From a virus (lineage: Duplodnaviria; Heunggongvirae; Uroviricota; Caudoviricetes): a DNA stretch of 31,111 nt. Under the pieces are notes generated by a model, which saw nothing but the letters and a program-made list of their open reading frames with translations, was not told where the DNA came from and ran no database searches. This document shows positions 6,537 to 31,111 of the stretch, piece after piece (position 1 is the first letter of the stretch; each line of letters starts with the position of its first letter). The stretch lies in IMG/VR virus record IMGVR_UViG_2563366800_000008, one strand, 5' to 3'. Position numbers and translations under genes: made by a program.

Positions 6537-6543
6537 GGTTGAT

Positions 6544-8726: not shown

Positions 8727-8730
8727 TAAT

Positions 8731-9054: not shown

Positions 9055-9070
9055 GTTATAGCCAATACAA

Positions 9071-9086: not shown

Positions 9087-9097
9087 GGCTTTTTTTT
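9073..9097 (+). terminator. Rho-independent terminator
   Basis: Perfect inverted repeat AAGCCGG-TTAAT-CCGGCTT followed by a run of T residues. Confidence 0.7.
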
Positions 9098-9150
9098 CGT
9101 CCGGCACATGATGGAAGGGAAATCTAACCCACTTCCAAAGGTGCCGTTTT

Positions 9151-9741: not shown

Positions 9742-9742
9742 T

Positions 9743-11466: not shown

Positions 11467-11472
11467 GAGGCT

Positions 11473-11766: not shown

Positions 11767-11768
11767 CG

Positions 11769-12143: not shown

Positions 12144-12414
12144 AGCCCTTAAGCCACTGAGCAGCAGCCAGCGCGACATCATCCGGAAAATGGCCGCCAT
12201 TCTCGTCTGTGCGGAAATTGAAGTCAGAGCCATTGCACCGCAGTTTGAAAAATCGACGGGTAAAAAATACAACTCCGAATCCGCTGATTCGTATCTGAAC
12301 ACATTCCTCAACAGCAACCCGGAATACAAACGCGTCTGGAAGTTGCTGCTGAAAGACAAATCCAGCGTTGAACGTGACTTCCTTGAACGTATGAGGAGGG
12401 AGAATGGCAAGTGA
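12136..12414 (+). CDS. Hypothetical protein
   Basis: ATG 12136 inside ORF 12115..12414, overlapping the previous stop by 8 nt. Confidence 0.45.
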   Translation: MTKALKPLSSSQRDIIRKMAAILVCAEIEVRAIAPQFEKSTGKKYNSESADSYLNTFLNSNPEYKRVWKLLLKDKSSVERDFLERMRRENGK

Positions 12415-12982
12415 ACGCCAGACGCGCGGACGACCCTCAAAGATTGATTTGCTCCCGGATGCGGTCCGGGAGCAACTTCATCAGATGCTGCGCGACAAAC
12501 GACATACCCAGGAAGAAATCCGCGAAGCGATTAACGAGCTGATCAACGAATATAACCTTCCGGAGGACATGCAAATCAGCCGTACCGGTCTGAACCGCTA
12601 CGCAAGCCGCATGGAAACGATGGGGTCAAAGATTCGCGCTTCACGCGAGATGGCTGAAATATGGGCATCAAAACTTGGCTCAGCGCCGACGTCTGACGTC
12701 GGAAAATTACTGCTGGAGTTTGTCAAAACACTGGCCTTTGAAACCTCAATGGAAATGGCTGACAGCGATAAAACTGTCGAACCAAAAGCGCTGGGCCAGC
12801 TTGCGCTTGTCGCCCAGCGACTGGAAGCCGCAGCGATGGCAAGCCACAAACGCGAGAAAGAAATCCAGCAGGAGTTTGCGAAAAAAGCCGCTGCGGCCGC
12901 AGAGACCATAACCCGTTCTGCTGGTCTGTCTGCTGAGACGGCGGCTGATATCAAACGTCAGATTCTGGGGATTGCAGAATGA
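12404..12982 (+). CDS. Terminase small-subunit-like protein (Mu gp27 family)
   Basis: 192-aa ORF directly before the large terminase; N-terminus RGRPSKIDLLPDAVREQL resembles Mu gp27 as recalled. Confidence 0.7.
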   Translation: MASERQTRGRPSKIDLLPDAVREQLHQMLRDKRHTQEEIREAINELINEYNLPEDMQISRTGLNRYASRMETMGSKIRASREMAEIWASKLGSAPTSDVGKLLLEFVKTLAFETSMEMADSDKTVEPKALGQLALVAQRLEAAAMASHKREKEIQQEFAKKAAAAAETITRSAGLSAETAADIKRQILGIAE

Positions 12983-14562: not shown

Positions 14563-16130
14563 TGTTTAAACAACTAACCGGAGCCGTTCGCCGGCTGCTC
14601 AGTCCTGCCACGGGAGAAGTTGTCACCGTGAACAAGGATGAGCTGAAGCAGACGCAATCCGCAGCGGCGGTAATGAGTGTACGTTCCCCCTCGGCAGGTA
14701 TCAGCGTTGCCAGTACGCTGAGTCCCGGCAGGCTTGCGGGGATCTTACGTAATGCAGCCGATGGTCATGCCCGTGATTTCTTCATTATGGCGGAGGAACT
14801 GGAGGAACGTGACCTCCACTACGCCAGCGTTTTACGTACACGCAAGCTGACGGTTTCCGGGATTGAACCTTCAGTGGAGGCCGGGAGCGATTCCCCGCGG
14901 GATGTGGAAATCGCAGATGATATCCGTAACCTCATGGCGCAACCGCAGGTTCCCGAACTGCTGTTCGATTTGCTGGACGGGCTTGGTAAAGGCGTTGGTG
15001 TCTGCGAAATCCTCTGGAATACCAGCACCACACTCTGGAAACCCCGCGATTATGAATGGGTAGATCCACGTTTTCTGAAACCTGACCGGGAAACGCTGCG
15101 TGATTTCAGACTACTGACGGACAGGAACCCCATCGATGGTGAGCCATTGTCACCGGGGAAATTTATCGTCCATAAGCCCCGCCTGAAATCCGGTCTGCCC
15201 TTGCGTAACGGTCTGGCGCGTCTGGTGGCCGTCATGTATATGCTCAAGTCCTACACAGTCCGGGACTGGTGGGCGTTTGCTGAAAAATTTGGCATCCCGA
15301 TTGTGGTGGGTAAATACGGCAACAACGCCAGCCCGGAACAAATCCAGACATTGCTGGATGCGATTGCATCACTGGCATCAGATGCCGGCTGCGCAATCCC
15401 CGACTCGATGAAACTGGAGATGCAGGAAGCGGCGAGCCGTAACAGCGGTGGCACTCTCTTTAAAGAGATGGCCGAATGGTGTGACGCGCAGATTAGTAAG
15501 GCCGTACTGGGGCAGACCATGACCACGGATGACGGCAGTTCACGTGCTCAGGCGGAAGTCCACAATGGTGTGCGTATGGACATCGCCAAATGGGATGCCT
15601 GGCAGTTATCCAACACGCTGTCTGAATTCCTTGTTCGTCCCTATGTGGATATGAATTACGGACCACAGGAGCATTACCCCCGCGTCGTTCTGCGCATCAG
15701 CAAACCGGAAGATCTTAAGGTTCTGGTGGATGCACTGTCGCCGCTGATTGACCGGGGGATGGAAGTTCAGATGTCAGAGATCCGTGACAAATTCGGGCTG
15801 TCTGAACCGGAGAAAGGCGCAAAAATTCTGACACCAACGGCGCAAATGACTAACCCACTACCGGCCATGAACCGTGAGCAGACTGCGCTTAACCGCAGCC
15901 AGCCTGACGTTCTTGATATGATGGTGGATGAAGCGATGAATGACTGGCAGCGTACCGGCGATGCGTTCACCAGTCCGGTGCTTGAGCTGGCAAAGAAATC
16001 TGACAGCTTTGAATCTTTTCTTGCTGGCCTGCCGGCGCTTCAGAAAGAACTTGATGCGGATGAGTTTGCGACGCAGCTGGCGATGCTCTGTTTTAAAGCC
16101 CGGTCGCTGGGAGATGTAAACGATGGCTAA
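14562..16130 (+). CDS. Portal protein (Mu gp29 family)
   Basis: 522-aa ORF immediately after the terminase; size and position match the Mu portal. Confidence 0.85.
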   Translation: MFKQLTGAVRRLLSPATGEVVTVNKDELKQTQSAAAVMSVRSPSAGISVASTLSPGRLAGILRNAADGHARDFFIMAEELEERDLHYASVLRTRKLTVSGIEPSVEAGSDSPRDVEIADDIRNLMAQPQVPELLFDLLDGLGKGVGVCEILWNTSTTLWKPRDYEWVDPRFLKPDRETLRDFRLLTDRNPIDGEPLSPGKFIVHKPRLKSGLPLRNGLARLVAVMYMLKSYTVRDWWAFAEKFGIPIVVGKYGNNASPEQIQTLLDAIASLASDAGCAIPDSMKLEMQEAASRNSGGTLFKEMAEWCDAQISKAVLGQTMTTDDGSSRAQAEVHNGVRMDIAKWDAWQLSNTLSEFLVRPYVDMNYGPQEHYPRVVLRISKPEDLKVLVDALSPLIDRGMEVQMSEIRDKFGLSEPEKGAKILTPTAQMTNPLPAMNREQTALNRSQPDVLDMMVDEAMNDWQRTGDAFTSPVLELAKKSDSFESFLAGLPALQKELDADEFATQLAMLCFKARSLGDVNDG

Positions 16131-16917
16131 GCCGGTCAGCGATAAATACAGCATTATTCCCCAGGAAGCACTGGCCTGGCTGAAGGCGAAAAAGCTGAAG
16201 CCGGGATTTGATTACCGCGATGTCTGGATGGAAGAACACAGCATCGGCTTTACTGTGGCAAAGATGACGCAGCTTGATTTGCTGGCGGACGTTCGCCAGC
16301 TCGTGGAGGACGCACTGGAGAGCGGCCAGACCTTTGAGCAATTTCGCGAGGTTCTTAAACCTATGCTGGTCAAACGTGGATGGTGGGGACAGCAACTGAT
16401 GGATGATCCACTGACCGGTGAAACCCGTACTGTCCAGCTCGGCAGTGACCGCCGGATGCGCGTTATCTACGACACCAACATGCGGACAGCCCGCGCGGCG
16501 GGACAATGGCAGCGTATTGAACGGACCCAACGGGCAATGCCTTATCTTGTCTACACCGTCGGCCCCTCACGTGAGCACCGTGCGGAGCATCTGCGCTGGA
16601 AGGATGTCTGCCTGCCGGTGGATCATCCGTTCTGGCGAACACACATGGGGCCGAACGGCTGGGGATGCAAATGCGGTACACGGCAAATCAGCCGGTATGA
16701 GTATGAGCAGATGAAGGCCAACGGCACTATCAACACGGAAGCCCCTGAAGTGCGTACGGTCAGATGGGTTAACAAACGCACCGGCGAAGAAGAGACCATT
16801 CCGGAGGGGATTGATCCCGGCTGGGCGTACAACCCCGGAATCTCCCGCAGTCGCGAGCTGGATGAACAGCTACGCAGAAAACAGGACGCGTTTGACAGTC
16901 ATTCGCCACAAAGATAA
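16123..16917 (+). CDS. Head morphogenesis protein (Mu F-like)
   Basis: 264-aa ORF after the portal, the position of Mu F. Confidence 0.7.
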   Translation: MAKPVSDKYSIIPQEALAWLKAKKLKPGFDYRDVWMEEHSIGFTVAKMTQLDLLADVRQLVEDALESGQTFEQFREVLKPMLVKRGWWGQQLMDDPLTGETRTVQLGSDRRMRVIYDTNMRTARAAGQWQRIERTQRAMPYLVYTVGPSREHRAEHLRWKDVCLPVDHPFWRTHMGPNGWGCKCGTRQISRYEYEQMKANGTINTEAPEVRTVRWVNKRTGEEETIPEGIDPGWAYNPGISRSRELDEQLRRKQDAFDSHSPQR

Positions 16918-16958
16918 AAACCATCCCACAACGCGCGTGGCGGCATTAACGATTATTA

Positions 16959-17060
16959 CGTCATGACGGCACGTGAAAAAATCGTTAAACGCGCCACAGC
17001 GTTTTTAAACGTGTTTTAAACGCGGTTTCATGCCGCGTTTACAGTGAAGCCGGTTAATCC
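16959..17060 (+). promoter_or_regulatory. Head-operon upstream regulatory array: palindromes, 9-mer repeats and the shared 16-mer
   Basis: Palindrome CGTCATGACG (16959-16968), CACGTG (16970-16975), three direct TTAAACGYG copies (16985, 17005, 17016) and one inverted copy forming a 9-bp stem (17017-17041), then TGAAGCCGGTTAATCC (17045-17060), 61 nt before the protease/scaffold ATG. Confidence 0.5.
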
Positions 17061-17120
17061 ACCTGCATCCCCGTTCCCCCCCACACTGTCCGGAAGTAAA
17101 CAACGTGACCGGACAACACC

Positions 17121-18077
17121 ATGAACCCGAACAATACGGAACTGCTGGCGCTCTGCTTTCAGCTTCCTGACCTTACCGATGATGCATTGCCGGAATGGCT
17201 GCCGATGATACCGGCGGGAACCTTTACAGGGCGTGATGGCCGTTCGTGGGTGAACAACAATCCGGAAGCCATCATTCGTGCCTCGATGGCTTATCCAAAG
17301 CTCCCGTTTGATATCGAGCACTCTACCGAACTGAAAGGCCCGAAAGGCGATGAAGCCCCGGCTTATGGCTGGATTGACGGCTATCGCGTCAGTGATGGCG
17401 TGGTGGAGGCGCACGTTGAATGGACTGATGACGGCATGGCGCAGCTGCGCGGCAAGAAGTACCTCTATTACAGTCCGGCCTTTCGGTTCACTGCGGACGG
17501 TCAGGTCACCCGCCTGTCCAGCGCCGCGCTGACCAACAAACCCAACCTTGATTTACCCGCACTCAACTCTGAGGAAAACACGATGACCGTACCTGTCCAG
17601 ATTGTGACAGTGCTTGGCCTCGCGGCCACTGCCACAGCAGACGACGCAGTAAAAGCCATTCAGCAGATTAAGACCGCCGAGCAGGTGGCGCTTAACCGCG
17701 CTGAGAATCCTGACCTGACGAAGTTCATTCCGGTAGAGACCCACCAGTTAGCACTTAACCGTGCGGAAAGCGCTGAAAACAAACTCAATGAGATTGCCAT
17801 CAAAGAATCAGAAGCACTGGTGGACAGCGCCATTGAGTCGGGGAAAGTCGCACCGGCCAACCGAGAAATGTATCTCGCCACCTGCCGCTCTGAAGAGGGC
17901 CGAAAGCGGTTTGCTGAATTCGTGAAAGCGGCACCGGTCATTGTCAGCAAGACCACGACGACCAAAAAAGAAGGCACCGAAGGTCATGCCTCGCTTTCTG
18001 ACGAAGACCTCGCGATGTGCCGCCATATGGGCATCAGCGAAGAAGAATTCCTTTCCGTTCGTAAGCAGGAGAAATAA
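17121..18077 (+). CDS. Head maturation protease / scaffold (Mu I family)
   Basis: 318-aa ORF directly upstream of the major head gene; N-terminal protease-like region and Ala/Glu-rich helical C-terminal region as in Mu gpI. Confidence 0.8.
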   Translation: MNPNNTELLALCFQLPDLTDDALPEWLPMIPAGTFTGRDGRSWVNNNPEAIIRASMAYPKLPFDIEHSTELKGPKGDEAPAYGWIDGYRVSDGVVEAHVEWTDDGMAQLRGKKYLYYSPAFRFTADGQVTRLSSAALTNKPNLDLPALNSEENTMTVPVQIVTVLGLAATATADDAVKAIQQIKTAEQVALNRAENPDLTKFIPVETHQLALNRAESAENKLNEIAIKESEALVDSAIESGKVAPANREMYLATCRSEEGRKRFAEFVKAAPVIVSKTTTTKKEGTEGHASLSDEDLAMCRHMGISEEEFLSVRKQEK

Positions 18078-18080
18078 TTC

Positions 18081-18974
18081 ATGCAGGTATCCGCAGAAGT
18101 GTTGCATGCCCTGACCACCGCACTGAGCGCCGCCTTTACCAAAGGTGTTGGTCGGGTCAATCCGCAGTATCGATCCATCGCCACGGTCATCCCCAGTTCC
18201 GGCGCGTCTAACACTTATGGCTGGGTTGAAGACTTCCCGACCATCAAAGAATGGATCGGGGCGCGTCAGCTGAAAGAACTGGCTCAGGCCGGGTATGTCA
18301 TTACCAACAAGACCTGGGAAAACTCGGTCAAGGTCAAGCGCGAAAAAATCGAGGACGATCAGATTGGTCAGTATTCCGTGATTGCTGAGCAGCTTGGCCG
18401 CGATACCACGATTTTCCCGGACAAGCTGTCGTTTGAGTTGCTGTGCAAAGGCTTCGATACGCTGTGCTGGGACGGTCAGTATTTCTTCGATACTGATCAC
18501 CCTGTTGGTACATCCACCAAATCGAACGTTGTGGGCGACCCGGCGACCGATACGGGTGAGCCGTGGTTCCTGATTGATGCAACGCATGCGCTGCTGCCCA
18601 TCATTTACCAGGAGCGCCGTCCGTTTAACTTCATCGCCCTTGATGATCTCACCAGTGAGCGTGTGTTCCTTCAGAACGAATTCGCCTACGGGACCGATGG
18701 CCGCAGCAACGTTGGCTTTGGTTTCTGGCAGACCTGTGTGGGGTCAAAAGCAGCACTGAACAAAGCGAACTATGAAGCCGCTGTCTCCGCAATGATGGGT
18801 ATCACGGACTCTAACGGCGAACCTCTGGGCATGAATCCGACATTGCTGGTCGTCGGTAAGAACAACCGTGGTGCGGCCAAGGCGCTGATTGAAGCGGTTA
18901 CGGCTGATGGTGGTGGTTCAAACATCTATTACAAGGATGTTGACCTGCTGGTCTCACCTTACGTCAAAGCATGA
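18081..18974 (+). CDS. Major head subunit (Mu T family)
   Basis: 297-aa ORF after the protease/scaffold; size and position match Mu gpT. Confidence 0.85.
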   Translation: MQVSAEVLHALTTALSAAFTKGVGRVNPQYRSIATVIPSSGASNTYGWVEDFPTIKEWIGARQLKELAQAGYVITNKTWENSVKVKREKIEDDQIGQYSVIAEQLGRDTTIFPDKLSFELLCKGFDTLCWDGQYFFDTDHPVGTSTKSNVVGDPATDTGEPWFLIDATHALLPIIYQERRPFNFIALDDLTSERVFLQNEFAYGTDGRSNVGFGFWQTCVGSKAALNKANYEAAVSAMMGITDSNGEPLGMNPTLLVVGKNNRGAAKALIEAVTADGGGSNIYYKDVDLLVSPYVKA

Positions 18975-19008
18975 CGTCATTACGTAAAAAATCACGTAAT
19001 GCCGGATT

Positions 19009-19029
19009 AAGGAGGGGTTAACCCTCCTT
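19009..19029 (+). other. Stem-loop after the major head gene, possible attenuator
   Basis: AAGGAGGG (19009-19016) pairs with CCCTCCTT (19022-19029) around a GTTAA loop; only a short T run follows. Preceded by inverted repeat CATTACGT/ACGTAATG (18978-19001). Confidence 0.4.
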
Positions 19030-19057
19030 TAAACCCAACCTGAATGAGGTTTAAAAA

Positions 19058-19651
19058 GTGAGTGGAAAAGTTAATAAGTCAGCCGCTGGTAAGACCGGAA
19101 CCACTTCGGAAAAGAAAGACGACAAAGCAACGAAGGATACGCCTGTCCCGGCGAAACCGGCACCGGTGGCACCAGTTATTACTGATGACAGTCAGGCATC
19201 ACAACCGGCGGTTGCAGCTTCAGATGTCGCATCTGACCCGGAACCTGTACCCGGTGACAATGGAATAACGGTTATCCCGGCCACAGTCAGTCTTGTCACC
19301 ATACCGGGTGAGAACACGGGTGATGACCTGAGAAAACATCTCTGGCAGGAGACGCTGGCACATGACCATTCAGAGGCTGTTCGCATTGCTGAAAATGTCG
19401 TGGTGCTGGAGGTCCGCGCCATTCCGGAAAACGGTTTTCGCCGGGCTGGCCGATTCTGGCCGCACGATACGGTGCATGTGTTTGTCAGCGATAACCCGGA
19501 TGAACAGATTCTGGAAGATGCCGGTGGTAATCCGCTACAGGGGTGCGTGATCAGTACCGACACAGCCCTGCGTCTGAAGGCTGAAAAGATGCTGATTGTG
19601 ACCGAACTGGCGACCGTTGCCGGGACTGAAGCCGACGTGGAGAGCAAATAA
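19058..19651 (+). CDS. Hypothetical virion-associated protein with Ala/Pro/Thr-rich low-complexity N-terminus
   Basis: 197-aa ORF with GTG start and GAGG 9 nt upstream; lies between the major head gene and the gp36-like gene. Confidence 0.55.
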   Translation: MSGKVNKSAAGKTGTTSEKKDDKATKDTPVPAKPAPVAPVITDDSQASQPAVAASDVASDPEPVPGDNGITVIPATVSLVTIPGENTGDDLRKHLWQETLAHDHSEAVRIAENVVVLEVRAIPENGFRRAGRFWPHDTVHVFVSDNPDEQILEDAGGNPLQGCVISTDTALRLKAEKMLIVTELATVAGTEADVESK

Positions 19652-20091
19652 TGGGCATCTACGTAACGCGTGAGGACCTGCTGGCAACCGATGGTGACCG
19701 CGTCTGGAACATGGCAATCAACAAAGAGACGCAGCAGCTCGACGAAGAAAAGATCCAGCGTGCGATTGATGACACTGATGCAGAAATTAATTCCTTTCTG
19801 GCAAAGCGTTATCAGTTGCCGCTGAACCTTCCGAGCCTGCCGAGTCCGTTGCGCCGGGCGGCGGTTTCCATCGCGTTCTACTGGCTGTCTGAACGGGACC
19901 ATCAGATCACCGATGAAATCCAGAAGCGTTACGACGAAGCCCTCCGCACCCTGCGTGAAATCGCCAACGGCACCCGTGACCTCGGTGTGCCGTCTGACAC
20001 CCCGGTCCCTGAGACCGACACCGGAAAGCTGATCATCGTCAGTGAAAACCGTCGTCTGTTCACCCGTAACAACCTGAAAGGGGTGCTGTGA
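19651..20091 (+). CDS. Mu gp36-like head-tail joining protein
   Basis: 146-aa ORF in the Mu gp36 position; start overlaps the upstream stop. Confidence 0.65.
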   Translation: MGIYVTREDLLATDGDRVWNMAINKETQQLDEEKIQRAIDDTDAEINSFLAKRYQLPLNLPSLPSPLRRAAVSIAFYWLSERDHQITDEIQKRYDEALRTLREIANGTRDLGVPSDTPVPETDTGKLIIVSENRRLFTRNNLKGVL

Positions 20092-20633
20092 TGGGAATTA
20101 CTGTCGAGGTCAGAGGAGACCAGAAGTTTCAGGACATTCGCCGTGCGATTGAGCGACTGGCTGACCAGTCGCTGCAACAGGAGCTACTGGAGAGCATTGG
20201 CGCTGTGGTGGAGTCACAGACCCGCCGGCGCATCTCCAGCGAAAAATCCAGTCCTGCCGGCGAGAAATGGCAGGACTGGTCTGACAGCTACGCGAAAACC
20301 AGACACAGCAACCAGAGCCTGTTACAGGGCAACGGCGATCTGCTCGACAGTATCCAGTATGTGGTCAGCGGCTCTGTCGTTCGTGTGGGTACGCCGCTTG
20401 ATTATGGCCGGACGCACAACGAGGGGTTTTCCGGCTCGGTGTCTGTGTCAGCCCATAAGCGACTCATCTCACAGGCATTTGGACGGGCGCTTAAACACGG
20501 GGTATGGCAAACCGTGGGGGCGCATAAACGTATGTTGAACATCCCGCAGCGTGAGTTCCTCGGCCTGTCCTCCGGGAACAGTCAGGAACTGCTGCACGTC
20601 ATCGGGGATTTCTGGAATGAGGTTCTGCAATGA
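20088..20633 (+). CDS. Phage virion morphogenesis protein (gpG/S-like)
   Basis: 181-aa ORF, translationally coupled (ATGA overlap) to the previous gene. Confidence 0.6.
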   Translation: MMGITVEVRGDQKFQDIRRAIERLADQSLQQELLESIGAVVESQTRRRISSEKSSPAGEKWQDWSDSYAKTRHSNQSLLQGNGDLLDSIQYVVSGSVVRVGTPLDYGRTHNEGFSGSVSVSAHKRLISQAFGRALKHGVWQTVGAHKRMLNIPQREFLGLSSGNSQELLHVIGDFWNEVLQ

Positions 20634-21253
20634 ATGAACGTCCGGCGTTCGTCACCCTGGGCAGTACGGTCAGTGCCGCCGAGAATATTGTTAACTGGCT
20701 GAAAGCTGAACTGGAGGGTGAAAAGCAACCTGACCGGGTTGAAAAGGTGGAGCGTCACATCGGTCAGTTTAACACCCCGGATCAGGTCAAAAGCTATATG
20801 TCCGGGCGCGGCGGCAGTATCCGTATTGCGGCCTTACGGGTCAGGAATATCCAGAACCGTCGCGGCATGACCGGACTTGTGACCTGGGCGGCCTACATCA
20901 TGATGGCTGATTTCTGGGGATACCCGCGCGATGCCCGCTGTGAGGTTATTGCCGGACGCCTTGCCCGTCGTATCAGTTGTCGTGAAGCGGCTGCGGGCAT
21001 GAAGGCTGAGCGTATGGCTGAGAACATCGCCGCTGAAAACCTCTGGTCGGGTGGCCTGGACAATCTCGGGATCACCATGTGGGCCGTTACATGGGAACAG
21101 GAATTCCGTCTTGATGATGAGATAGACCTGTCCACGCTGCCGGAATTCCTGCGACTGGGGGCAACCATTGTGGTGAACGGACAGCCTGTAAGCGATGAGC
21201 CGCAAATCATAAACGTAAGAGAAGGACAGACTGATGACAAAGAAAATGATTAA
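20630..21253 (+). CDS. Mu gp37-like protein
   Basis: 207-aa ORF in conserved position before the tail sheath gene. Confidence 0.6.
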   Translation: MNERPAFVTLGSTVSAAENIVNWLKAELEGEKQPDRVEKVERHIGQFNTPDQVKSYMSGRGGSIRIAALRVRNIQNRRGMTGLVTWAAYIMMADFWGYPRDARCEVIAGRLARRISCREAAAGMKAERMAENIAAENLWSGGLDNLGITMWAVTWEQEFRLDDEIDLSTLPEFLRLGATIVVNGQPVSDEPQIINVREGQTDDKEND

Positions 21254-21422
21254 GCCATCACGGGCGGGCCTGCTCGTTCGTAAGGCTGATGGCAGTCACC
21301 TTGCCGCTGATGGCGAGACGCTGCCGGTCAATGCGTACTGGCTGCGCCGTGAAAAAGAAGGCGATGTGAATATCACTGAGCCACCGAAGTCCCGCACACC
21401 TAAAACCGATAAGGAGGCATGA
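21234..21422 (+). CDS. Small Mu gp38-like protein
   Basis: 62-aa ORF with AGAAGGA upstream; immediately precedes the sheath gene. Confidence 0.5.
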   Translation: MTKKMIKPSRAGLLVRKADGSHLAADGETLPVNAYWLRREKEGDVNITEPPKSRTPKTDKEA

Positions 21423-22900
21423 TGTCCATCGGTAATATTCCTGATGATATTCGTGTCCCGCTGGTCTGGATCGATATCGATAACTCTATGGCGATGAGTG
21501 CCGCGCCGGCACAGTCCCGAAAAATTCTGGTTGTGGGTCAGCAGCTCGCCAGCGCGACTGCTTTACCGTTGACGCTGAACCGTATTACTGGCGACAGCAT
21601 GGCTGATGAACTCTATGGCCGTGGCTCCATGCTGGGTGAAATGGCAAAGATGGTCCGTATGGCCAACAGTTACACCGAGATGTATGCGATGGGACTGGAA
21701 GATATTGCCCAGGGTGCCGCGGCGAGTGCCACAGTCACGATGCTCGGCACCGCCACTCAGGCTGGTACGCTGGCACTGATGATCAATGGCGTATCTGTCC
21801 AGGTCGGGGTCAGCATCGGTGATGAAGCGGCAACCATTGCCGGCAATATCATCGCTGCAATTACCGCAAAGCCTGCCACTCAGGTTACTGCCACAGCAAA
21901 AGCTGAAGCTGCTGCAACGGTAGTGCTGACCGTGAAGTGGAAAGGCGTCACGGGAAATGACAGTGATGTGCGCCTGAACTATTACGCCGGAGAAAAAACA
22001 CCTGCCGGCATCAGTGCAACACTGACCGCATTTTCGGGTGGTACGGGGACGCCGGATATTCAGTCTGTTGTCGCGGCGCTGGGAGATGACTGGTACACGG
22101 ATATCATCTTCCCGTACCTCGATGCCCAGAGCCTGAACACCATTCGTGACGAACTGCTGGAACGCTGGGGGCCGCTCAAGATGATGGAGGCGCTGTTGTG
22201 GTCTGCTTATCGCGGAACACATGCCCAGAGCGGAACATTCGGACATACCCGCAATGACTGGCTGATTTCCTGTATCGGCACCAACATCGCACCTGAACCG
22301 TCATGGATGTGGGCCGCCAGCTACGGTGCAACGGCGGCATACCAGCTTGCCATAGATCCGGCCCGTCCTCTCCAGACTCTGATCCTGACAGGCATCAAGC
22401 CCCCCGCTCGCGGTATCCGCTGGGATATGCCAGAGCGTAACCTGCTGTTGCATGACGGTATCGCCACGCACTTTGTTGATGCCGGAGATAACGTCTGTAT
22501 TGAGCGCGAAATCACCATGTACCGCGTAAACCGCTATGGCGATACGGACATTTCATACCTCGATGTGCAGTCGCCAGCAACGCTTGGCCGTATCCGTTAT
22601 GTCATCAAAAACCGTTTCACCAGTCGCTACCCACGCCACAAGCTGGCGGGTGATGACGTGCTTGATTTGCTCGATGCCGGTCAGCCAGTCATGACGCCAA
22701 AAATCTGTCGGGCTGAGTTACTGGATATTGCGCTGACTGAGCTTATCCCGGCAGGTCTGGTGGAGGATTTCGAAGATTATAAAGACACGCTTGATGTCAC
22801 CATCGACAGCAAAGACCCAAACCGTCTGAACTTTATCTGCCACCCGAATCTGGTGAATCAGTTGCGCGTTCTGGCCGGTCTCATCCAGTTCAAACTTTAA
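21419..22900 (+). CDS. Contractile tail sheath protein (Mu L family)
   Basis: 493-aa ORF followed directly by a small tube-like gene, the sheath/tube pair of myovirus tails. Confidence 0.85.
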   Translation: MMSIGNIPDDIRVPLVWIDIDNSMAMSAAPAQSRKILVVGQQLASATALPLTLNRITGDSMADELYGRGSMLGEMAKMVRMANSYTEMYAMGLEDIAQGAAASATVTMLGTATQAGTLALMINGVSVQVGVSIGDEAATIAGNIIAAITAKPATQVTATAKAEAAATVVLTVKWKGVTGNDSDVRLNYYAGEKTPAGISATLTAFSGGTGTPDIQSVVAALGDDWYTDIIFPYLDAQSLNTIRDELLERWGPLKMMEALLWSAYRGTHAQSGTFGHTRNDWLISCIGTNIAPEPSWMWAASYGATAAYQLAIDPARPLQTLILTGIKPPARGIRWDMPERNLLLHDGIATHFVDAGDNVCIEREITMYRVNRYGDTDISYLDVQSPATLGRIRYVIKNRFTSRYPRHKLAGDDVLDLLDAGQPVMTPKICRAELLDIALTELIPAGLVEDFEDYKDTLDVTIDSKDPNRLNFICHPNLVNQLRVLAGLIQFKL

Positions 22901-22909
22901 GGAACCAGC

Positions 22910-23266
22910 ATGGCAAATATTCTGGGTATGGCGGCGATTCGTATTAATGGCCGTGAAATCAAAACTGAAGGCAAGTCCACCCTGAATCCGGGTGGCTATG
23001 CCCGCCAGCAACACATGGGCGGCGGTAAGGTCTGGGGGAATTCCCGCAAGATGGCTGCCCCCTCCATCAAACTGACCATTGCAGCGGATCGTGACGTTGA
23101 TGTGATTGAAATCAGTAACTGGGAGGACGTGACCGTCATGTTCTACGGTGACAACGGCCTCAACTACATGATGACCGGCGCGGCCACCGATAACCCGGCT
23201 GAACTGGACGAAGACGCGGGGACAGTTTCGGCTAACTTCATCGGCGTCAAGTGTGTGAAGGTGTAA
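22910..23266 (+). CDS. Tail tube protein (Mu M family)
   Basis: 118-aa ORF after the sheath gene, AAGGA upstream. Confidence 0.8.
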   Translation: MANILGMAAIRINGREIKTEGKSTLNPGGYARQQHMGGGKVWGNSRKMAAPSIKLTIAADRDVDVIEISNWEDVTVMFYGDNGLNYMMTGAATDNPAELDEDAGTVSANFIGVKCVKV

Positions 23267-23269
23267 GAC

Positions 23270-23665
23270 ATGGCTGAACTGACATTCCCTCTGGTACACG
23301 GTCTGCGCACCGGCAAAGGTACTACCGACGAAATGCTTCACAAGGATGTGACGCTACGCGAGCTGACATCACGGGATGTTATCGAATCACAACTGGCCTC
23401 CGAGCGCGTTGTGATTGGGGATAACGGCAAGGCGGTTGCCTACTGCTCTGAGGTCATGATGGGTCTGGAGATGATGCGCCGGCAGATTAAGAAGATTGGA
23501 GAAATCCCCGGCCCGCTGGACATGAATCAAATTTATGCCCTGCATCCGGAAGATTTGAAGTTGCTGACAGAAAAGGGTCAGGCGATGGATGACATGCTGG
23601 GGGAGACTGCCGAACGGGGGCGACATGATGCCGATGGCAGCGGCGCTCAATCTACTGCTGATTAA
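23270..23665 (+). CDS. Tail assembly chaperone
   Basis: 131-aa ORF between the tube and tape-measure genes, the conserved chaperone position. Confidence 0.65.
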   Translation: MAELTFPLVHGLRTGKGTTDEMLHKDVTLRELTSRDVIESQLASERVVIGDNGKAVAYCSEVMMGLEMMRRQIKKIGEIPGPLDMNQIYALHPEDLKLLTEKGQAMDDMLGETAERGRHDADGSGAQSTAD

Positions 23666-23774
23666 CCTCTCTCAGCGTTTCGATGTTAACCGGCTTGAGC
23701 AACTGCCCCTACGGCAGTTGCTTATTCAGGTCAGGCAACTGAGGAAGCAATATGACAAACCGCCTAAGCACTGA
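23589..23774 (+). CDS. Possible frameshift extension of the tail assembly chaperone
   Basis: ORF in the +1 frame overlapping the chaperone's last 77 nt and ending just inside the tape-measure gene; G-runs at 23600-23605 and 23615-23620 lie in the overlap. Confidence 0.3.
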   Translation: MTCWGRLPNGGDMMPMAAALNLLLINLSQRFDVNRLEQLPLRQLLIQVRQLRKQYDKPPKH

Positions 23775-25671
23775 AATTCTGATTAACCTTGCCGGGAACC
23801 TGACGGCTAAAGCCCGCCAGTACGGCGCTAACATGAGCGAGTTTGCCAGCCGTAACCAGAAAGCAATGTCTGTTGTTAAGGCCGCGTCTGAATCTGCCGG
23901 ACGTGGTCTGGACATGCTCAGTAATCGCTATACAACGATGATTGCCGGCCTTGCCAGCGGCGCAGCGCTGAGAGAATTTGCTAAAACAGATCGACAATTA
24001 ACCGGGCTGGGTATTGCCGCCGGTAAAACTCGTGATGAGATGCGCAATATCTTTGATGGTATTCAGGATACCGCCATCAAATTCCGGGTGGATGACTCGG
24101 AGGTGTTGGCCGCACTGGAGAATGTCAACAAAACGACCGGTGATCTGGATTTCGGTATTCAGAATAAGGGCATGATAGCCGCCTCTATCGCTGCATCAGG
24201 CTCTCAGGGGGATTCGATTGGCGGACTGTTTTCTCAGTTCCCCAAATTTGGTCTTCAGACTGAAAAGCAGACGCTTGCAGCTATGGACACGTTAAACCTT
24301 CTGGGAAAAGAAGGCGCATTTGAGCTGAAAGACATTGCAGAAAAAGGCGTCAGAGCCTTCTCTATGTACTCCGCTGCTGGCGGGAGTGGCGTTAAGGGAG
24401 TCAAAGACGTAGGCGTTGTACTGGAATCAGCCATTGATGCCACAGGCAACCGTGATACAGCAGCCACGGCGACTGAAAACCTTATTCGTGATCTGCAGTT
24501 GCCAAAGGTTGTTAGCACCCTTCGAAAGAATGGTGTCAACGTTTATGACAAAGATGGGAAGATGCGATCACTTCCAACACTCCTGGAGGAAATCGCTAAA
24601 AAATCAGGGAGTAAAGGTTCTGAGAAACAGAATAAAAGACTCCTGGAAGCCGGTTTTAACCAGGACAGTATTTTACTTATCAGCAGTGCCACCTCTGGTA
24701 AAGGAGCAGAAAACCTCAAGCGATACCAGTCAGTTGTCGGGGACGGCACAGGCATCATGAAAGATGCTGAATATGCGGCGAAAGATTTTACTTCGGCACT
24801 GACCAGCCTGAATGTTACCTGGAAGAAGTTTTCTAACAGCAATCTTGCCGGCCCGGTACAGGACCTGGCTGATGCTATCAATTCAGTTGATCAAAAGACG
24901 GTTCAGAACTGGCTGGAAGTCGGCAAGAAAATAGCCATTGCGACCGCTGGAGTCATTGCGGCACGTAAAGCATTTAAAATTGGTAAAGGTGCATGGGAGT
25001 TTCTCCAGCCAGAAAAAGGCGGAAAAGGCATCCCTAAAGGCGTCTCCGATGTTTTTGGCTCCGGTGTTATGCCCGTTTATGTCGTGAACATGGGCAAAGG
25101 TGGGATGGGGGGGCCGGGTGATTTAATCCCCGATGGACCTGATGGAAAAAATCCCCGTAAACCTAATAGTCCCAGACGTCCTGGCAGCCCACAGGAAATG
25201 GTCGGCCTGACCATGCTGGCGTCAACTATTCCATACCTTTATGAAGAACCATCACTGAGCAGTGATGACAAAGCTGGCATGGTTCAGTGGGCAAAGGATC
25301 GTGCCAAACGCAAAGCAAATGAGAAACCGGTTATTGACCCGCGCCCGTGGGCATCACTGACCCCGGCGACGCCGTTCATTCCTGCGGCTGAAAATCCCCC
25401 GGCAGACAGACCGCGCCCTGAAACGAGTGATCATTCTTTGTTTGGTGTCATCGTTGATTTTCTGCGTGGCACCAACGCCGCAATTGAAAACAAAAACGCG
25501 TTTGATAAGCCTGTTCAGCCACCTGCATTACCCACAACCCTACAGAAAATGCAGGGTGAAATCCGCGTGATCCTTGAGGGTGGCGGTGGCCGTGTTAAAA
25601 GCGTCACCATGAACCAGCCGGATATCAAACTTAGTGCATCTGCTGGCGTGTCCAGCGTGGAGCAAGGCTGA
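23752..25671 (+). CDS. Tail tape measure protein
   Basis: 639-aa ORF after the chaperone; long helical Ala-rich N-terminal region and Gly/Pro-rich C-terminal part. Confidence 0.85.
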   Translation: MTNRLSTEILINLAGNLTAKARQYGANMSEFASRNQKAMSVVKAASESAGRGLDMLSNRYTTMIAGLASGAALREFAKTDRQLTGLGIAAGKTRDEMRNIFDGIQDTAIKFRVDDSEVLAALENVNKTTGDLDFGIQNKGMIAASIAASGSQGDSIGGLFSQFPKFGLQTEKQTLAAMDTLNLLGKEGAFELKDIAEKGVRAFSMYSAAGGSGVKGVKDVGVVLESAIDATGNRDTAATATENLIRDLQLPKVVSTLRKNGVNVYDKDGKMRSLPTLLEEIAKKSGSKGSEKQNKRLLEAGFNQDSILLISSATSGKGAENLKRYQSVVGDGTGIMKDAEYAAKDFTSALTSLNVTWKKFSNSNLAGPVQDLADAINSVDQKTVQNWLEVGKKIAIATAGVIAARKAFKIGKGAWEFLQPEKGGKGIPKGVSDVFGSGVMPVYVVNMGKGGMGGPGDLIPDGPDGKNPRKPNSPRRPGSPQEMVGLTMLASTIPYLYEEPSLSSDDKAGMVQWAKDRAKRKANEKPVIDPRPWASLTPATPFIPAAENPPADRPRPETSDHSLFGVIVDFLRGTNAAIENKNAFDKPVQPPALPTTLQKMQGEIRVILEGGGGRVKSVTMNQPDIKLSASAGVSSVEQG

Positions 25672-27002
25672 TGGCTGCTACCCGATGGGAAGACCTGCGC
25701 GATGCTTCGTTCCGGGGCGTCTCGTTTTATCTGGTCGATAACGAAGGCACCAGCGGCCGTCGGGCAATTCCCCGCGCCTACCCCAAAAAAGAAGTGGGCT
25801 GGACCGAGGATAACGGTGCCGTTCTGACCCAACAGCAAATCAACGGCAAGCTGATTGGAAAGAACTACCAGAGCCAACTGGAGGCACTTCTCCGGGCTCT
25901 GAACACACCTGGACCCGGTGAACTTATCCATCCGTGGTTCGGCATTCAGAAGGTTCAGATTGGTAAGGTGACTCACCGTCTGAGCACTGAGGAAGGCGGC
26001 ATTGCCTACATCTCTTTTGAGGTATCTGAGGCGGGCGAGCGCCTGTTTCCTGCGCCGGCAGAAAATACCAGCCTGACGGTACTCAGCGCAGCGGATAAGG
26101 TCAAAGCTGCGCTGGCGAATGGCGATGTCTTTGCCCTGCTTGATGGTCTTGGTGAGATGGCCGATACGTGGATGGACGACATGGAAAATCTGGTAGTGGG
26201 TGTGCTGACGCTGCCCTCCGCGATTACTGAATGGACTGACCGTTTAGGGCGTTTTCGTGGGTTGATTGAGCTGGCCGTCGCGAAACCAGCCGGATTTATC
26301 AATGATGTTCTGAACCTTGTCAGCGGTGTACGCGACACCGTGACCGAACCTCTTTGGTCAATGCGGGTTTATGATCAGATCCGCAACCGGTGGCAGGGAG
26401 ATCAGTTTTCCGGTTCTTCATCTTCGCCGTGGTCGTCGCCGGTTTCGCCAACAAATACAAGTGACCGGGCGACAGCCGCTGCACTTCACCAGTTGCCCAA
26501 ATACATGTCAGTCACACCAGGTTCAGTGACTGACGGAAAGTATGGTTTTGCCAGCAGCCTTCCGGACGTTGTCCCTGAACTGACCGATGCCATGCAGGCC
26601 AACATCACTCATTTTCGTCAGCTGATTGTCGTTGCCAGCCTAATTGGACAGGCAGAGACCGTTGCCAGCACCGAGTTCAGAAGTAGTGAGGAAGCCATAA
26701 GTGCGGGTGACACGCTGGCTGAGCAACTGAATGAACAAGCTGTGTATGCCGTAGAAAACGGTCAGCGGAATTTGTGGCATGCCCTGCGCGAGCTGCGCTT
26801 TGCCGTCGTCAATGACGTGCGGGTCAGAAGCGCTCAGCTACCACAGACACGAACGGTCATTCTGACCACAACGTCCCCGGTATCTCTGATTGCATGGCGT
26901 GAAACCGGTAATACCGAGAACCGTGACGCCATCGCGTCAAGGAACCGATTGAAAGACCCGGCGTTCGTTCTTCCGGGTAAACCTGTCGAGGTAACAGATT
27001 GA
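25671..27002 (+). CDS. DNA circularization protein (Mu N family)
   Basis: 443-aa ORF directly after the tape measure, the position of Mu N; start overlaps the upstream stop. Confidence 0.75.
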   Translation: MAATRWEDLRDASFRGVSFYLVDNEGTSGRRAIPRAYPKKEVGWTEDNGAVLTQQQINGKLIGKNYQSQLEALLRALNTPGPGELIHPWFGIQKVQIGKVTHRLSTEEGGIAYISFEVSEAGERLFPAPAENTSLTVLSAADKVKAALANGDVFALLDGLGEMADTWMDDMENLVVGVLTLPSAITEWTDRLGRFRGLIELAVAKPAGFINDVLNLVSGVRDTVTEPLWSMRVYDQIRNRWQGDQFSGSSSSPWSSPVSPTNTSDRATAAALHQLPKYMSVTPGSVTDGKYGFASSLPDVVPELTDAMQANITHFRQLIVVASLIGQAETVASTEFRSSEEAISAGDTLAEQLNEQAVYAVENGQRNLWHALRELRFAVVNDVRVRSAQLPQTRTVILTTTSPVSLIAWRETGNTENRDAIASRNRLKDPAFVLPGKPVEVTD

Positions 27003-28093
27003 TGGAAATGGTTGTGCTTGAGGTTGACGGCCAGCAGTGGGACGGATGGACAGAGATGTCCATCACTTCCTCACTGGAGGCTGTTGCCGGCGAATTTGAT
27101 CTCACTGTCACCACACAATGGTCAGAAGCATCACCACGCGTGATTAAGCAGGGCATGCCCTGCATCGTCAGGCTGGGAAAAGATACGGTTCTGACGGGGT
27201 ATATTGATGATTTCATTCCCAGCTATGACGCAGAAAACATGAGTATTCGCGTTATGGGGCGGGATAAAACCGGCGATCTCGTTGACAGCTCAGTGGTGCA
27301 TAAATCCGGCCAGTGGAAAGGTGTTCGACTGGAGCAACTGGCAGTGGAAATCTGCAAACCCTATGGCATCAGTGTTATCAGTGAAACTGACACTGGTGAA
27401 ACCTTCGGTAGCGTGGTGCTTGAACAGGGAGAGACCGCCTTCGATCTTCTTGACCGCCTGGCTAAACAACGCGGCGTTCTGCTGACTGCTGATGGTCTGG
27501 GTAATCTGATCATCACCCGTGCATCAACAAAGCGTGCCGGCGTTCCTCTGATTTTCGGGACCAATATTCTTGCAGCCCGCGGCCGGTTCAGCTGGCGTGA
27601 GAGAAACAGCCAGTACATCGTGAAAGGCACCTCCAGTGCGGGTGGGAGCACGTGGGACGATCAGCCAGTCAAAGTGATTGGAGGACGTCAGACCATCGTT
27701 GATGATGGTGACATCAACCGTTACCGCCCGAAAATTCTGGTCAATGAAGACAGCCTGACCGTCGGAGGCGCAAGTACACGCGGTGAATGGTACAAAGCGC
27801 GGATGATGGGCGAAGCCAACAGCACCGAAATTACACTGGCAGGATGGCGAGAGAATGGCGATGAAGGCCCGTTATGGCAGAAAAACAGGCGCGTTGATAT
27901 TGATGACCCGGTACAGAACCTGAAGGACTCATGGCTGATTAAAACCGTCACGTTTACTGAAGGTGATAACGGACGTCTCTGCGTTCTGACGCTGGTTCCC
28001 CCTGAGTCGATGGATATGCCTGAAACCAGTGCGAAAAAAGCAGGCAAGAAAGGCAAGAGATCAAAGGCAAAAACGGAGGAAACATGGGACTGA
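26999..28093 (+). CDS. Baseplate hub / tail protein (Mu P family, gpD-like)
   Basis: 364-aa ORF in the Mu P position, with a basic Lys-rich C-terminal tail. Confidence 0.75.
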   Translation: MMEMVVLEVDGQQWDGWTEMSITSSLEAVAGEFDLTVTTQWSEASPRVIKQGMPCIVRLGKDTVLTGYIDDFIPSYDAENMSIRVMGRDKTGDLVDSSVVHKSGQWKGVRLEQLAVEICKPYGISVISETDTGETFGSVVLEQGETAFDLLDRLAKQRGVLLTADGLGNLIITRASTKRAGVPLIFGTNILAARGRFSWRERNSQYIVKGTSSAGGSTWDDQPVKVIGGRQTIVDDGDINRYRPKILVNEDSLTVGGASTRGEWYKARMMGEANSTEITLAGWRENGDEGPLWQKNRRVDIDDPVQNLKDSWLIKTVTFTEGDNGRLCVLTLVPPESMDMPETSAKKAGKKGKRSKAKTEETWD

Positions 28094-28626
28094 ATCCGGC
28101 AAATATCGGTCGCACACTTGAAGGTATTGGACGCCGGCTGCGATTGCTCGTTGACAGGGCCGTTGTTCGTATCGTTACAGACAGTCTCGGGCGTCAGAAC
28201 CTCCAGATCCAGTCTCTGGCGGATTCCACCAATGATGATGTTGAACGTTTCCAGAACTACGGCCTGACGTCTGTGCCGCCAGTCGGTTCAGAAGCACTCA
28301 TTCTGGCAGTGGGGGGACGCCGGGAAGGTCTGGTGGCAATCGCTGTTGAAGACAAGCGCTGTCGTCCAAAAGGTCTGGAGGATGGAGAGGTCAGGTTATA
28401 TCACGGCGATGGTCAGTCTTATATCACCCTGAAAAAAGGTGGTCTTATCGACGTTAAAGGGAAATCGGTTAATTACGATGCCGGCGAATTGTTTGCGATA
28501 AATACAAAATTATTAAAAGTTAACGGCCCATCTGTATTTTCAAATGATATTCAGGTCGCCGGTAAATCTGTTCTTGAGCATTTCCATATGGACGGGGATG
28601 GCAAAAAAACATCGGAGATGAAATGA
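28084..28626 (+). CDS. Baseplate assembly protein V-like (spike)
   Basis: 180-aa ORF in the conserved baseplate order. Confidence 0.7.
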   Translation: MGLNPANIGRTLEGIGRRLRLLVDRAVVRIVTDSLGRQNLQIQSLADSTNDDVERFQNYGLTSVPPVGSEALILAVGGRREGLVAIAVEDKRCRPKGLEDGEVRLYHGDGQSYITLKKGGLIDVKGKSVNYDAGELFAINTKLLKVNGPSVFSNDIQVAGKSVLEHFHMDGDGKKTSEMK

Positions 28627-29075
28627 CTATTGGTATCAGCTGGAATAATCAACTCTCCAGAGGTGAACTGACAATTAACCATGATGGTTTATCGCGTGAT
28701 GAAGGACTGGTCACTTTGGTTCTGATTTGTCTTTTCACCGACGTCCGTGCTGATACTGATGACATTATTCCTGATAACTCATCGGACCCGAGAGGCTGGC
28801 CCGGCGACACATTTAGTGATTATCCGTGGGGATCGAAACTCTGGTTGCTGGATCGCGAGAAGCTGACGGAATCCGTCAGAATGCGGGTGGAAGATTATGC
28901 ACTGCTTTCTATGCAACCGCTTTTACGTTCTGGTTATGCGCGTAATGCAGCAGTCACAGCCACTATAAGCGGCAATGACCGAATTAATTTTATTGTCATT
29001 CTAACCCGCCCGGATAAAACGACGCTCCGGATTGAAATAAGTAAACGCTGGGAGTCCACTGCTAATGCCTTATAA
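28623..29075 (+). CDS. Baseplate protein, GP46 family (gpW/gp25-like)
   Basis: 150-aa ORF immediately upstream of the baseplate J gene. Confidence 0.7.
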   Translation: MTIGISWNNQLSRGELTINHDGLSRDEGLVTLVLICLFTDVRADTDDIIPDNSSDPRGWPGDTFSDYPWGSKLWLLDREKLTESVRMRVEDYALLSMQPLLRSGYARNAAVTATISGNDRINFIVILTRPDKTTLRIEISKRWESTANAL

Positions 29076-30141
29076 CGTTCCCGCGCTGCGCAAGCTTATT
29101 ACTGACGGCGAAAAAGATATTGCCTTTGAACTGGGGCTGCAAAAACTTCCGCCAGTAGGCGTTGAGAAAGCTCTAAATACCTCATTCAGCAATCAGGTTC
29201 GTGATTTATACGACCATCAGAGCTGGATTAAAGACCAGATTATTCCGTCTGTTAAATCTGATGATGAAACCATCATTGAGACTGCGGCCAGCGAAGGCGT
29301 CGTCAGAAAACAGGCCACGTTTGCTACGGGGCCGGCGGTATTTAAAGGGAATACACCGCTGCCGGAAGATATGGAGATGCAAACCGCTACCGGTATTGTT
29401 TATGCCGTGACGACTTCCGGCGTTCCTGTAGATGGGGTCATGACTGTAACCATTCAGGCCAGCGATGCCGGCGCGTCAGGAAACCTTCCGGAAGGTGAAA
29501 GCCTGACCCTGCTGTCCCCCGTTCCCGGCGTGGAAAGTATTGGTTTAACGGGTACGGGAGGCATCATCGGTGGTTCGGATATTGAGCCAGTTTCTGAATT
29601 GCTTGACCGGCTTTTATTCCGTAAACGCAATCCCCCCGTTGGTGGGGCTGTGCATGACTATGTCATCTGGGCGCGAGAAATGGCTGGTGTCAGTCGGGCG
29701 TGGGCATTTGATGCCTGGCATGGTCCCTGCACAATCGGACTGGCATGGGTTTATGACGATCGTTCAGTGATTACCCCCGGATATCAGGACCGGAAAAATA
29801 TGGAAGATTACCTTTTCCGTCATACCGACCCGGCGACTGGCGTATGGGTTGGTAAACCTGGAGGAATAGAAGTCTGGCCCGTGGAACTGGTGCTCCGTCC
29901 CGTCAATATGATTATTGGCATAACACCGGATACACCGGCCACGCGTAAAGCTGTCCAGTCCCGCCTGTTGACGCTTCAGAAGACGCTGCAACCAGGACAA
30001 ACGCTGCCCATTTCAGCGATTCGCACTGCTATCGGCACCGCATCTGGCGTGACGGATTACACGCTGAATCTGACCGCTGACATTCCCTGTGCTCAGAATG
30101 AACTTATCACTATCGGAGTGCTGACATGGCCCACAGTGTAG
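29065..30141 (+). CDS. Baseplate J-like protein (Mu gp47)
   Basis: 358-aa ORF in the baseplate wedge position. Confidence 0.8.
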   Translation: MPYNVPALRKLITDGEKDIAFELGLQKLPPVGVEKALNTSFSNQVRDLYDHQSWIKDQIIPSVKSDDETIIETAASEGVVRKQATFATGPAVFKGNTPLPEDMEMQTATGIVYAVTTSGVPVDGVMTVTIQASDAGASGNLPEGESLTLLSPVPGVESIGLTGTGGIIGGSDIEPVSELLDRLLFRKRNPPVGGAVHDYVIWAREMAGVSRAWAFDAWHGPCTIGLAWVYDDRSVITPGYQDRKNMEDYLFRHTDPATGVWVGKPGGIEVWPVELVLRPVNMIIGITPDTPATRKAVQSRLLTLQKTLQPGQTLPISAIRTAIGTASGVTDYTLNLTADIPCAQNELITIGVLTWPTV

Positions 30142-30716
30142 ATGAATGGCTGGGCGCTTTATGGCAGGTCATGCCACGTGGCAAAGCGTGGTCACGCGAT
30201 GAGGATGGTGATTTAAACCGTTTTTTACGGGCGTTAGCCAGGCGTTTAAGTCAGACGGAATTTGATGCAGAAAACCTGCTACCGGAGATGCGGCCAGAAA
30301 CAACATTTATGCTGCTGGAAGAATGGGAGGAATACCTTGAACTGCCGGAGTGTGGGCAGTTAAGCGGTACTGTAGAAGACCGACGTCGTGCTGTCGTGGA
30401 GAAGTATCACCGCAAAGGTGGCCTTTCCCCGTGGCAGATTGAAGCTGTGGCTGCCGCGCTTGGATTTACTATCCGGGTTACTGTCATTCTGCCTCACCAC
30501 TGCATGCGTAGCTGCGTGTATCCCCTTTATCCAGCTCGTTATCGCTGGACGTTACAGATTGATGTGATCGGTATCAACGGCGGACGTTTTACCTGTATCG
30601 ATAACGTCATGACACCGCTTCTGAGCGAACGTGCAAGAGAACTGGAGTGTGTGCTGACGAAATACCGTCTCGGCGGCACAGCATACGAATATTTTTATTC
30701 TTCAGGAGATAACTGA
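30126..30716 (+). CDS. Tail protein, Mu gp48 family (gpI-like)
   Basis: 196-aa ORF directly before the tail fibre gene. Confidence 0.7.
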
Positions 30717-31111
30717 TGTTTCACGTAGATAATTCAACCGGTGTTCCGGTTATGCCACAACCGTCTCCTGTCACCAGTGAGACCGAGCTTTTCTTTACTG
30801 AAGGAGGTAATGGCGTTCCTCCGACGTATCCCGGACCGGACTGGTTTAATGTCATTCAAAGCGAGCTGCTCAATATTCTCAAGGCCGCTGGGATTGATCC
30901 TGACAAAATGGACAACACGCAGATTCTGGTCGCTCTCAAAAAACTGTTTCTGAGTCGTTCCAATCCATTTGGCGACATTAAAGCAGATGGTGCGGCAGCA
31001 ATCGCGGCGGCTCTCACAAACCTTGGTTTGGGAGAAGCAGCTAAAAGGAATGTAGGTACAGGGGCGAATCAGATACCTGATATGAGCCTGTTCGCGTCAA
31101 GTAATACCGCA
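30716..31111 (+). CDS. Tail fibre protein, N-terminal part; runs off the window
   Basis: Open frame from ATG 30716 (overlapping the previous stop) with no stop to the window end; not in the ORF track because it is open-ended. Translation [60 protein letters not shown] resembles P2 H / Mu S tail fibre N-termini. Confidence 0.8.

Follow-up and report, generated by a model that had tools for sequence, protein, structure and literature searches.

The closest described counterparts of the locus analysed here are the invertible switches of the Din family, above all the G segment of bacteriophage Mu. In Mu, whose invertase is Gin, whose crossover sites are called gix and whose gene pairs are S/U and S'/U', the order is gp48, the constant part of the fibre gene, a site, Sv-U, the inverted pair U'-Sv', a second site and the invertase. 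The C segment of P1 with Cin, the P region of e14 with Pin and the Min system of p15B also hold fibre C-terminal cassettes and chaperones that are flipped by Din-family invertases. Their crossover site lies inside the fibre gene, where it encodes a motif of the ..LGL.E type. Min is a multi-site shufflon, whereas no more than two sites per element were found here, which makes this a simple two-state switch. Like the present locus, the Hin/hix system of Salmonella has a serine invertase with its catalytic serine near the N-terminus and 26-bp sites, together with a Fis-bound enhancer of the kind proposed below; the serine acts as nucleophile, the invertasome is activated by Fis and the enhancer, and inversion proceeds by subunit rotation (PMC4513852). 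Hin controls a flagellin promoter, whereas the switch described here changes the coding sequence of a fibre.

We analysed a stretch of 31,111 nucleotides of viral DNA (the window), which ends within an ORF. We are highly confident that this ORF is the constant part of a fibre gene with a Gin-type invertible segment of two cassettes, carried by a Mu-like prophage of about 32.4 kb (a length inferred from relatives). In the defining features tested, the system is an invertible fibre switch of the Din family (Gin/Hin/Cin/Pin). The coordinates of its parts are given in Table 1.

The gene order is the same as in Mu, and like Mu the element is transposable, with MuA, MuB, a repressor, Ner, TG...CA ends and a 5-bp target duplication. 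It is more compact. Mu has a segment of 3.06 kb, a constant part of about 170 aa (the G boundary lies at nt 509 of S) and fibres of 504 aa; here the segment, measured in the intact relative L011, spans 1.86 kb, the constant part 107 aa and the fibres 213-272 aa. The C-terminal domains have no relationship to Mu Sv, and the core dinucleotide of the sites is TT rather than the TC of gix. In every related prophage the 3' ends of the two convergent chaperone genes overlap by 29 nt (L011 9655-9683; L001 17283-17311), while Mu U and U' do not overlap; both chaperones end in ..TSTAPD(I/V)xWPxxP, encoded on opposite strands of one stretch. The prophage ends 65 bp past the invertase, whereas Mu continues for about 1 kb with com and mom. 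In all five right ends that were aligned, these 65 bp were all that lay between the invertase and the end, and com and mom were absent from them, so that the DNA-modification gene about which the first-pass annotation had asked is not there.

Table 1. Features of the prophage and its fibre switch. Positions refer to the window unless the source scaffold (L014) is named.
Feature	Position	Strand	Basis or remark
Host dgcM (ydaM), 3' 1.2 kb	1..1209	-	100% identical to many E. coli strains
Target-site duplication TCCAG, left copy	1205..1209	.	Right copy at L014 10789-10793
Mu-like transposable prophage body	1210..31111	+	Left end TGACTAGTGAC... to window edge
Mu gp48 homologue, baseplate wedge gene	30126..30716	+	Pfam Phage_Mu_Gp48, E 1.5e-30
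Tail-fibre gene, 5' part, 132 codons	30716..31111	+	ORF and translation, Mu S similarity, PHROG 1833
Constant fibre part, residues 1-107	30716..31036	+	Common to both orientations
Left 26-bp crossover site (gixL/hixL equivalent)	31011..31036	.	CTCTCACAAACC TT GGTTTGGGAGAA
Central TT dinucleotide, inferred strand-exchange point	31023..31024	.	12+2+12 symmetry of the site
Variable cassette, first 74 bases, Gp53-like_C class	31038..31111	+	Continues into Pfam Gp53-like_C
Serine invertase, 184 aa	L014 10169-10723, outside the window	+	Pfam Resolvase E 5.6e-51, HTH_7 E 6.2e-12

Prophage, insertion site and source scaffold

From position 1210 onward the window is 99.98-100% identical to a prophage of E. 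coli ECONIH4 (100% over 17000-31111), while the flanks of the two differ. According to Pfam, the left end encodes MuA domains, MuB, a Mu-type repressor and Ner (DDE_2, E 6.8e-111; HTH_Tnp_Mu_1 and _2; Mu-transpos_C; Phage-MuB_C; HTH_35). The prophage begins with TGACTAG and ends with GCGGCA, that is, TG...CA, and in the source scaffold the right end ...GCGCGCGGCA is followed by TCCAG. Because TCCAG stands at both ends, and because the independent insertion in ECONIH4 has a 5-bp duplication of its own (ATGGC), the element is a Mu-like transposable prophage. Comparison of the left and right ends for terminal inverted repeats gave nothing beyond TG/CA and a trivial 7-mer. The flanks differ in every genome examined, which indicates many unrelated insertion sites.

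In the window, the first 1,209 bases encode GGDEF and PAS domains (Pfam). The prophage splits the diguanylate cyclase gene dgcM after about codon 10, and the window starts exactly at the dgcM stop codon. The 5' end of the gene lies past the right prophage end (L014 10789-10830), in a flank that holds these first dgcM codons and zntB-like, dbpA-like and ttcA-like genes. DgcM regulates curli and biofilm formation, and the insertion should inactivate it. The left junction of the window was in no record among the complete E. coli genomes searched. The ECONIH4 copy sits in a tail-assembly gene of a lambdoid prophage. Two records of Stx-converting phages, L008 (LC727881.1) and LC727895.1, carry the annotation 'inserted Bacteriophage Mu-like phage', with a fibre N-terminus 42% identical to the present one; here too, as with the ECONIH4 copy, transposition has brought a Mu-like element into a lambdoid prophage.

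The source scaffold was found by exact look-up of the gp48 protein in the assembly collection. L014 (GCA_000408625.1, scaffold KE137202.1) matches the final 8,986 bases of the window, the stretch that was compared, without a difference, and is the source of the window or an identical insertion. The element is common: 1,144 blocks of the collection contain the identical gp48 protein, and the look-up returned ten loci with differing host flanks. In L014 a run of N begins one base after the last base of the window; the truncation of the fibre gene therefore reflects an assembly break. As 2,850 nt separate the fibre start from the prophage end in L011, about 2.45 kb of prophage lie beyond the window, less than the 5-8 kb of rightward extension that had been suggested.

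The truncated fibre gene

The fibre gene starts with an ATG at 30716, which shares bases with the TGA that closes a 196-aa ORF just before it (ATGA); the fibre frame is open through all 132 codons up to base 31111. In the identical prophages the full protein in the orientation of the window has 222 aa. The preceding ORF is the gp48 homologue, to which the fibre gene is translationally coupled, and the same adjacency of gp48 and S is found in Mu. The fragment matches PHROG 1833 'tail fiber protein' (E 2.8e-33). By tblastn, its residues 1-78 are 44.9% identical to S of Mu, D108 and SfMu (E 9e-16), and by BLASTP it is 41% identical to Mu S over 113 residues (E 4e-24). In support of the start at 30716, the fragment and Mu S align from residue 1 onward (MFHVDN vs MFYIDN).

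These matches agree with the first-pass annotation in that a tail-fibre gene runs off the window. Its description of the N-terminus as P2/Mu-type holds for Mu only. BLASTP of the 132-aa fragment against P2 gpH gave no N-terminal similarity (best E 0.36, H residues 370-387), and the fibre is therefore Mu-type. The internal gpH stretch at residues 370-387 (..YLGLQETVNR) resembles the translated crossover site; the LGLQE stretch looks like a relic module boundary inside a non-invertible fibre.

Residues 1-107 are near-identical across the related prophages, with few substitutions in two lineages, and everything beyond residue 107 differs. Between ECONIH4 and a second prophage, EC09, identity ends at window position 31037. 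From its position and its homology to Mu S, the constant part is presumed to be the baseplate-attachment domain. Pfam returned no domain for residues 1-107, which were identified only by PHROGs and by direct comparison with Mu S. In the identical prophages the continuation of 31038-31111 contains a Gp53-like_C domain (E 5.7e-14). The host-range part had been placed just beyond the window, which is right for most of it but not for its start, since the variable region begins inside the window at 31038.

Crossover sites, cassettes and invertase

Although invertibility had been judged invisible in this stretch, the left crossover site lies within it. The site encodes L100-T-N-L-G-L-G-E107, and the fibre gene crosses it at codons 99-107. 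The right site is at L014 10089-10114 and reads, reverse-complemented, TTATCGAAAACG TT GGTTTGGGAGAA. The full 26-bp sites are inverted to each other and identical at 21 of 26 positions, with TT at the core of both. The corresponding inverted repeat in ECONIH4 joins L001 14019-14038 (window 31018-31037) to a stretch 60 bp upstream of the recombinase gene, with 19 of 20 bases matching. The half-sites of the left site match as a dyad at 10 of 12 positions and those of the right site at 8 of 12; compared with Mu gix (TTATCCAAAACC TC GGTTTACAGGAA), the left site agrees at 17 and the right site at 19 of 26. The AA/TT core is the same as that of hixL (TTCTTGAAAACCAAGGTTTTTGATAA). A loose hix/gix-like motif has a single match in the 31-kb window, and this match is the left site. 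The 12+2+12 symmetry suggests that strands would be exchanged at the central TT. A shufflon of the Min type with more than two sites was considered and rejected, because the motif scan gave at most two sites per related element.

The layout of the region can be read in ECONIH4 and in intact relatives such as L011. It opens with the 222-aa Gp53-like_C fibre and a 155-aa Caudo_TAP chaperone, continues on the minus strand with a convergent 200-aa Caudo_TAP chaperone and the C-terminus of a Collar-domain fibre, and ends with the 184-aa recombinase on the plus strand, 65 bp and the prophage end. In L014 the sequence beyond the gap holds a chaperone fragment (+), a 155-aa chaperone (-), a Gp53-like C-terminus (-) and the right site, followed by the invertase, the prophage end and the dgcM 5' end. 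The second cassette of the source scaffold is hidden in the gap, except for the last 55 codons of its chaperone.

We compared fifteen loci, namely L014 and 14 related prophages. The invertase gene is present in 14 of them, two inverted 26-bp sites in most, and there are two cassettes, each of a fibre C-terminus and a chaperone. Both orientations give open in-frame fusions to the same constant part, of 222 aa with the Gp53-like end and 257-272 aa with the Collar end, and in the relatives a Caudo_TAP gene comes after each fusion. The C-termini found behind the same constant part are of at least six kinds among the fifteen loci: several Gp53-like, several Collar, a glycine-rich one of 322 aa and one of 415 aa without invertase. 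The last belongs to L016 (8591-10495), which has the identical gp48 and a degenerate site, CTTTCGAAAACCTTGGTTTAGTAGAC, with one full chaperone, a second that is truncated, and no invertase gene called. L016 is apparently a fixed, non-invertible derivative. The ECONIH4 copy has an IS66 insertion in the 155-aa chaperone gene of its Gp53-like cassette (L001 14505-16985), and particles made in the Gp53-like orientation of that prophage are probably fibre-less or defective as a result.

Aligned with Mu Gin over 181 aa, the invertase shows 80% identity. Its best PDB matches, 3uj3 and 4m6f, are structures of DNA invertases. Ser9 lies in the N-terminal catalytic-serine motif YVRVSTNDQ common to both proteins. 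The 184-aa ORF is intact in 14 of the 15 loci, and the copy that was aligned with Gin retains the Ser9 motif. Candidate Fis cores, 15-mers of the form G-N13-C, occur at the same two positions of the invertase gene as in gin (nt 22-36 and 71-85). The presumed enhancer region does not exceed the remainder of the N-terminal half in third-codon-position identity to gin, and coding constraint is here inseparable from any constraint on an enhancer. By analogy with gin, the invertase would depend on Fis and on an enhancer within its own gene.

The first-pass annotation had raised an invertible segment, a serine invertase and fibre chaperones as possibilities, and each is borne out by the source scaffold and the relatives: two inverted sites, an invertase close to Gin, and a Caudo_TAP chaperone in each cassette. 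Extending the sequence rightward, as it proposed, revealed the second site, the gin-like invertase and the right prophage end.

We propose that the switch would work as follows. Late transcription of the tail operon would run via gp48 into the constant part of the fibre gene. The cassette in plus orientation downstream of the left site would be translated as the C-terminus and its adjacent chaperone co-expressed, and the other cassette, being without an N-terminus, would stay silent. The invertase, encoded just outside the right site, would pair the two inverted sites, cut at TT and rotate the DNA, and inversion would fuse either the Gp53-like or, in relatives, the Collar-type receptor-binding end in frame to the constant part. 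A lysogenic culture would then release phage with two fibres and presumably two host ranges. In this scheme, catalysis by the invertase and separate receptor specificities of the two ends are predicted.

Orientation of the segment

Both orientations occur in near-identical prophages. In EC09 the segment of ECONIH4 is turned round, the inversion being bounded exactly by the two sites, and the flanks match at 100% and 99.9%. Of the prophages that share the constant part, five join it to the Gp53-like end (ECONIH4, L011, L013, L017 and L018) and four to the Collar end (CAVP776, EC09, L012 and L015). The segments of ECONIH4 and EC09 are 3.3% diverged within identical flanks, which implies that cassettes are also replaced by recombination, so that differences in orientation between strains are not pure flips.

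In the source scaffold the same cassette is joined to both sites. The first 74 cassette bases, which stand after the left site in the window, are found again as their reverse complement beside the right site after the gap (L014 10014-10087), and the post-gap contig is otherwise colinear, at 98% identity, with L012, which is in the Collar-expressed orientation. The simplest reading of this assembly behaviour is that the sequenced culture contained the segment in both orientations, and that this broke the source assembly. Two draft assemblies with accessions in the same range, L009 and L014, have runs of N at the invertible segment; the run in L009 (8913-10887) spans exactly from site to site, and that in L014 occupies 8988-9177. 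This pattern resembles a systematic mark left on assemblies by mixed orientation. In IMG/VR, several contigs from other phages stop 15-63 nt beyond a site of this kind. The distance from site to contig end was also tried as proof of mixed orientation. The 75-nt overhang is about a k-mer or read length, but could not be linked to a specific assembler setting, and we treat it as supporting only.

The duplicated 74 bases could also arise in a culture of a single orientation, if the two cassettes of the source shared at least their first 75 bases. A perfect inverted repeat of at least 101 bases, as cassettes with identical starts would produce, could likewise break the assembly. A step in this direction is seen in ECONIH5 (L005), where both cassettes are Gp53-like and the inverted repeat extends to 48 bases. 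In L014, however, the post-gap contig starts in the C-terminus of the 200-aa chaperone type, which is paired with the Collar end in most other loci (ECONIH4, CAVP776, EC09, L011-L013, L015, L017 and L018), and its colinearity is with the Collar-expressed L012. We therefore consider a long inverted repeat unlikely, and less likely than mixed orientation as the cause of the duplication.

A second alternative accepts the sites and the invertase but holds that flipping has ceased, the orientations now seen dating from old events or from homologous replacement of cassettes. Recombinational replacement does occur, as the divergence between ECONIH4 and EC09 shows, and signs of decay exist in L016, which is without invertase and has a degenerate site, and in the ECONIH4 chaperone disrupted by IS66. 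Against these stand the intact invertase in all loci but one, with its Ser9 motif kept in the copy compared with Gin, the identical TT core retained by the sites, and the occurrence of both orientations among prophages whose constant parts are 100% identical. Moreover, two short-read assemblies break at or just past the sites, and repeats of 26 bp would mislead an assembler only if the reads contained both junctions. A switch that no longer flips is accordingly very improbable in our judgement.

The first-pass annotation had set against its own suggestion the outcome of one fibre gene that does not invert, with the prophage end directly after it. L016 comes near this state (a 415-aa fibre, one full chaperone and no invertase called), but here it can practically be dismissed, because the second site and the invertase gene are present in the source scaffold and also in the ECONIH4 prophage, which is 100% identical.

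Mixed orientation of an active two-state segment is our preferred reading of this locus, and the same site is found well beyond it. Exact junctions of site and cassette occur in at least 163 IMG/VR contigs (L022-L182), only one of which has the present constant part. These junctions were rejected as a measure of how frequent each orientation is in the prophage, since 162 of the 163 belong to other phage backbones. The commonest left half-site among them is CTCTCGAAAACC, and about half of those with at least 4 kb of downstream sequence contain an invertase-like catalytic motif. The 'short tail fiber protein' genes of the Shigella phages SfI, SfII, SfIV and SfV have window positions 31008-31111 in common with the present gene at 97-98% nucleotide identity, and their fibre protein is 56-58% identical over residues 27-131. 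In SfI, the one phage of the four whose context was examined, gtr O-antigen genes follow downstream, and neither an invertase nor a second cassette is present; the SfI site is a relic module boundary.

The site is a module boundary common to many phages, as has long been proposed for fibre genes. Sandmeier, Iida and Arber reportedly raised the idea of cassette exchange in these genes decades ago. Whether the 26-bp site also serves as a portable boundary, across which unrelated phage backbones exchange receptor-binding cassettes, we would put forward only tentatively, as a possibility more doubtful than probable. The IMG/VR junctions, the 3.3% divergence between ECONIH4 and EC09 and the invertase-free SfI junction fit such exchange, for which we know of no mechanistic demonstration. 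If the invertase itself catalysed intermolecular capture, the compact switch would be a natural device for swapping cassettes.

The locus reveals no new principle beyond Mu, P1, e14 and Hin, and is a compact further case of a known type of switch. The prophage has a complete Gin-type host-range switch and no mom. At the right edge of the window the assembly broke, at or beside the invertible segment, which is a useful point when truncated fibre genes in draft assemblies are judged. Finally, the compact element could serve as a natural two-state fibre scaffold.
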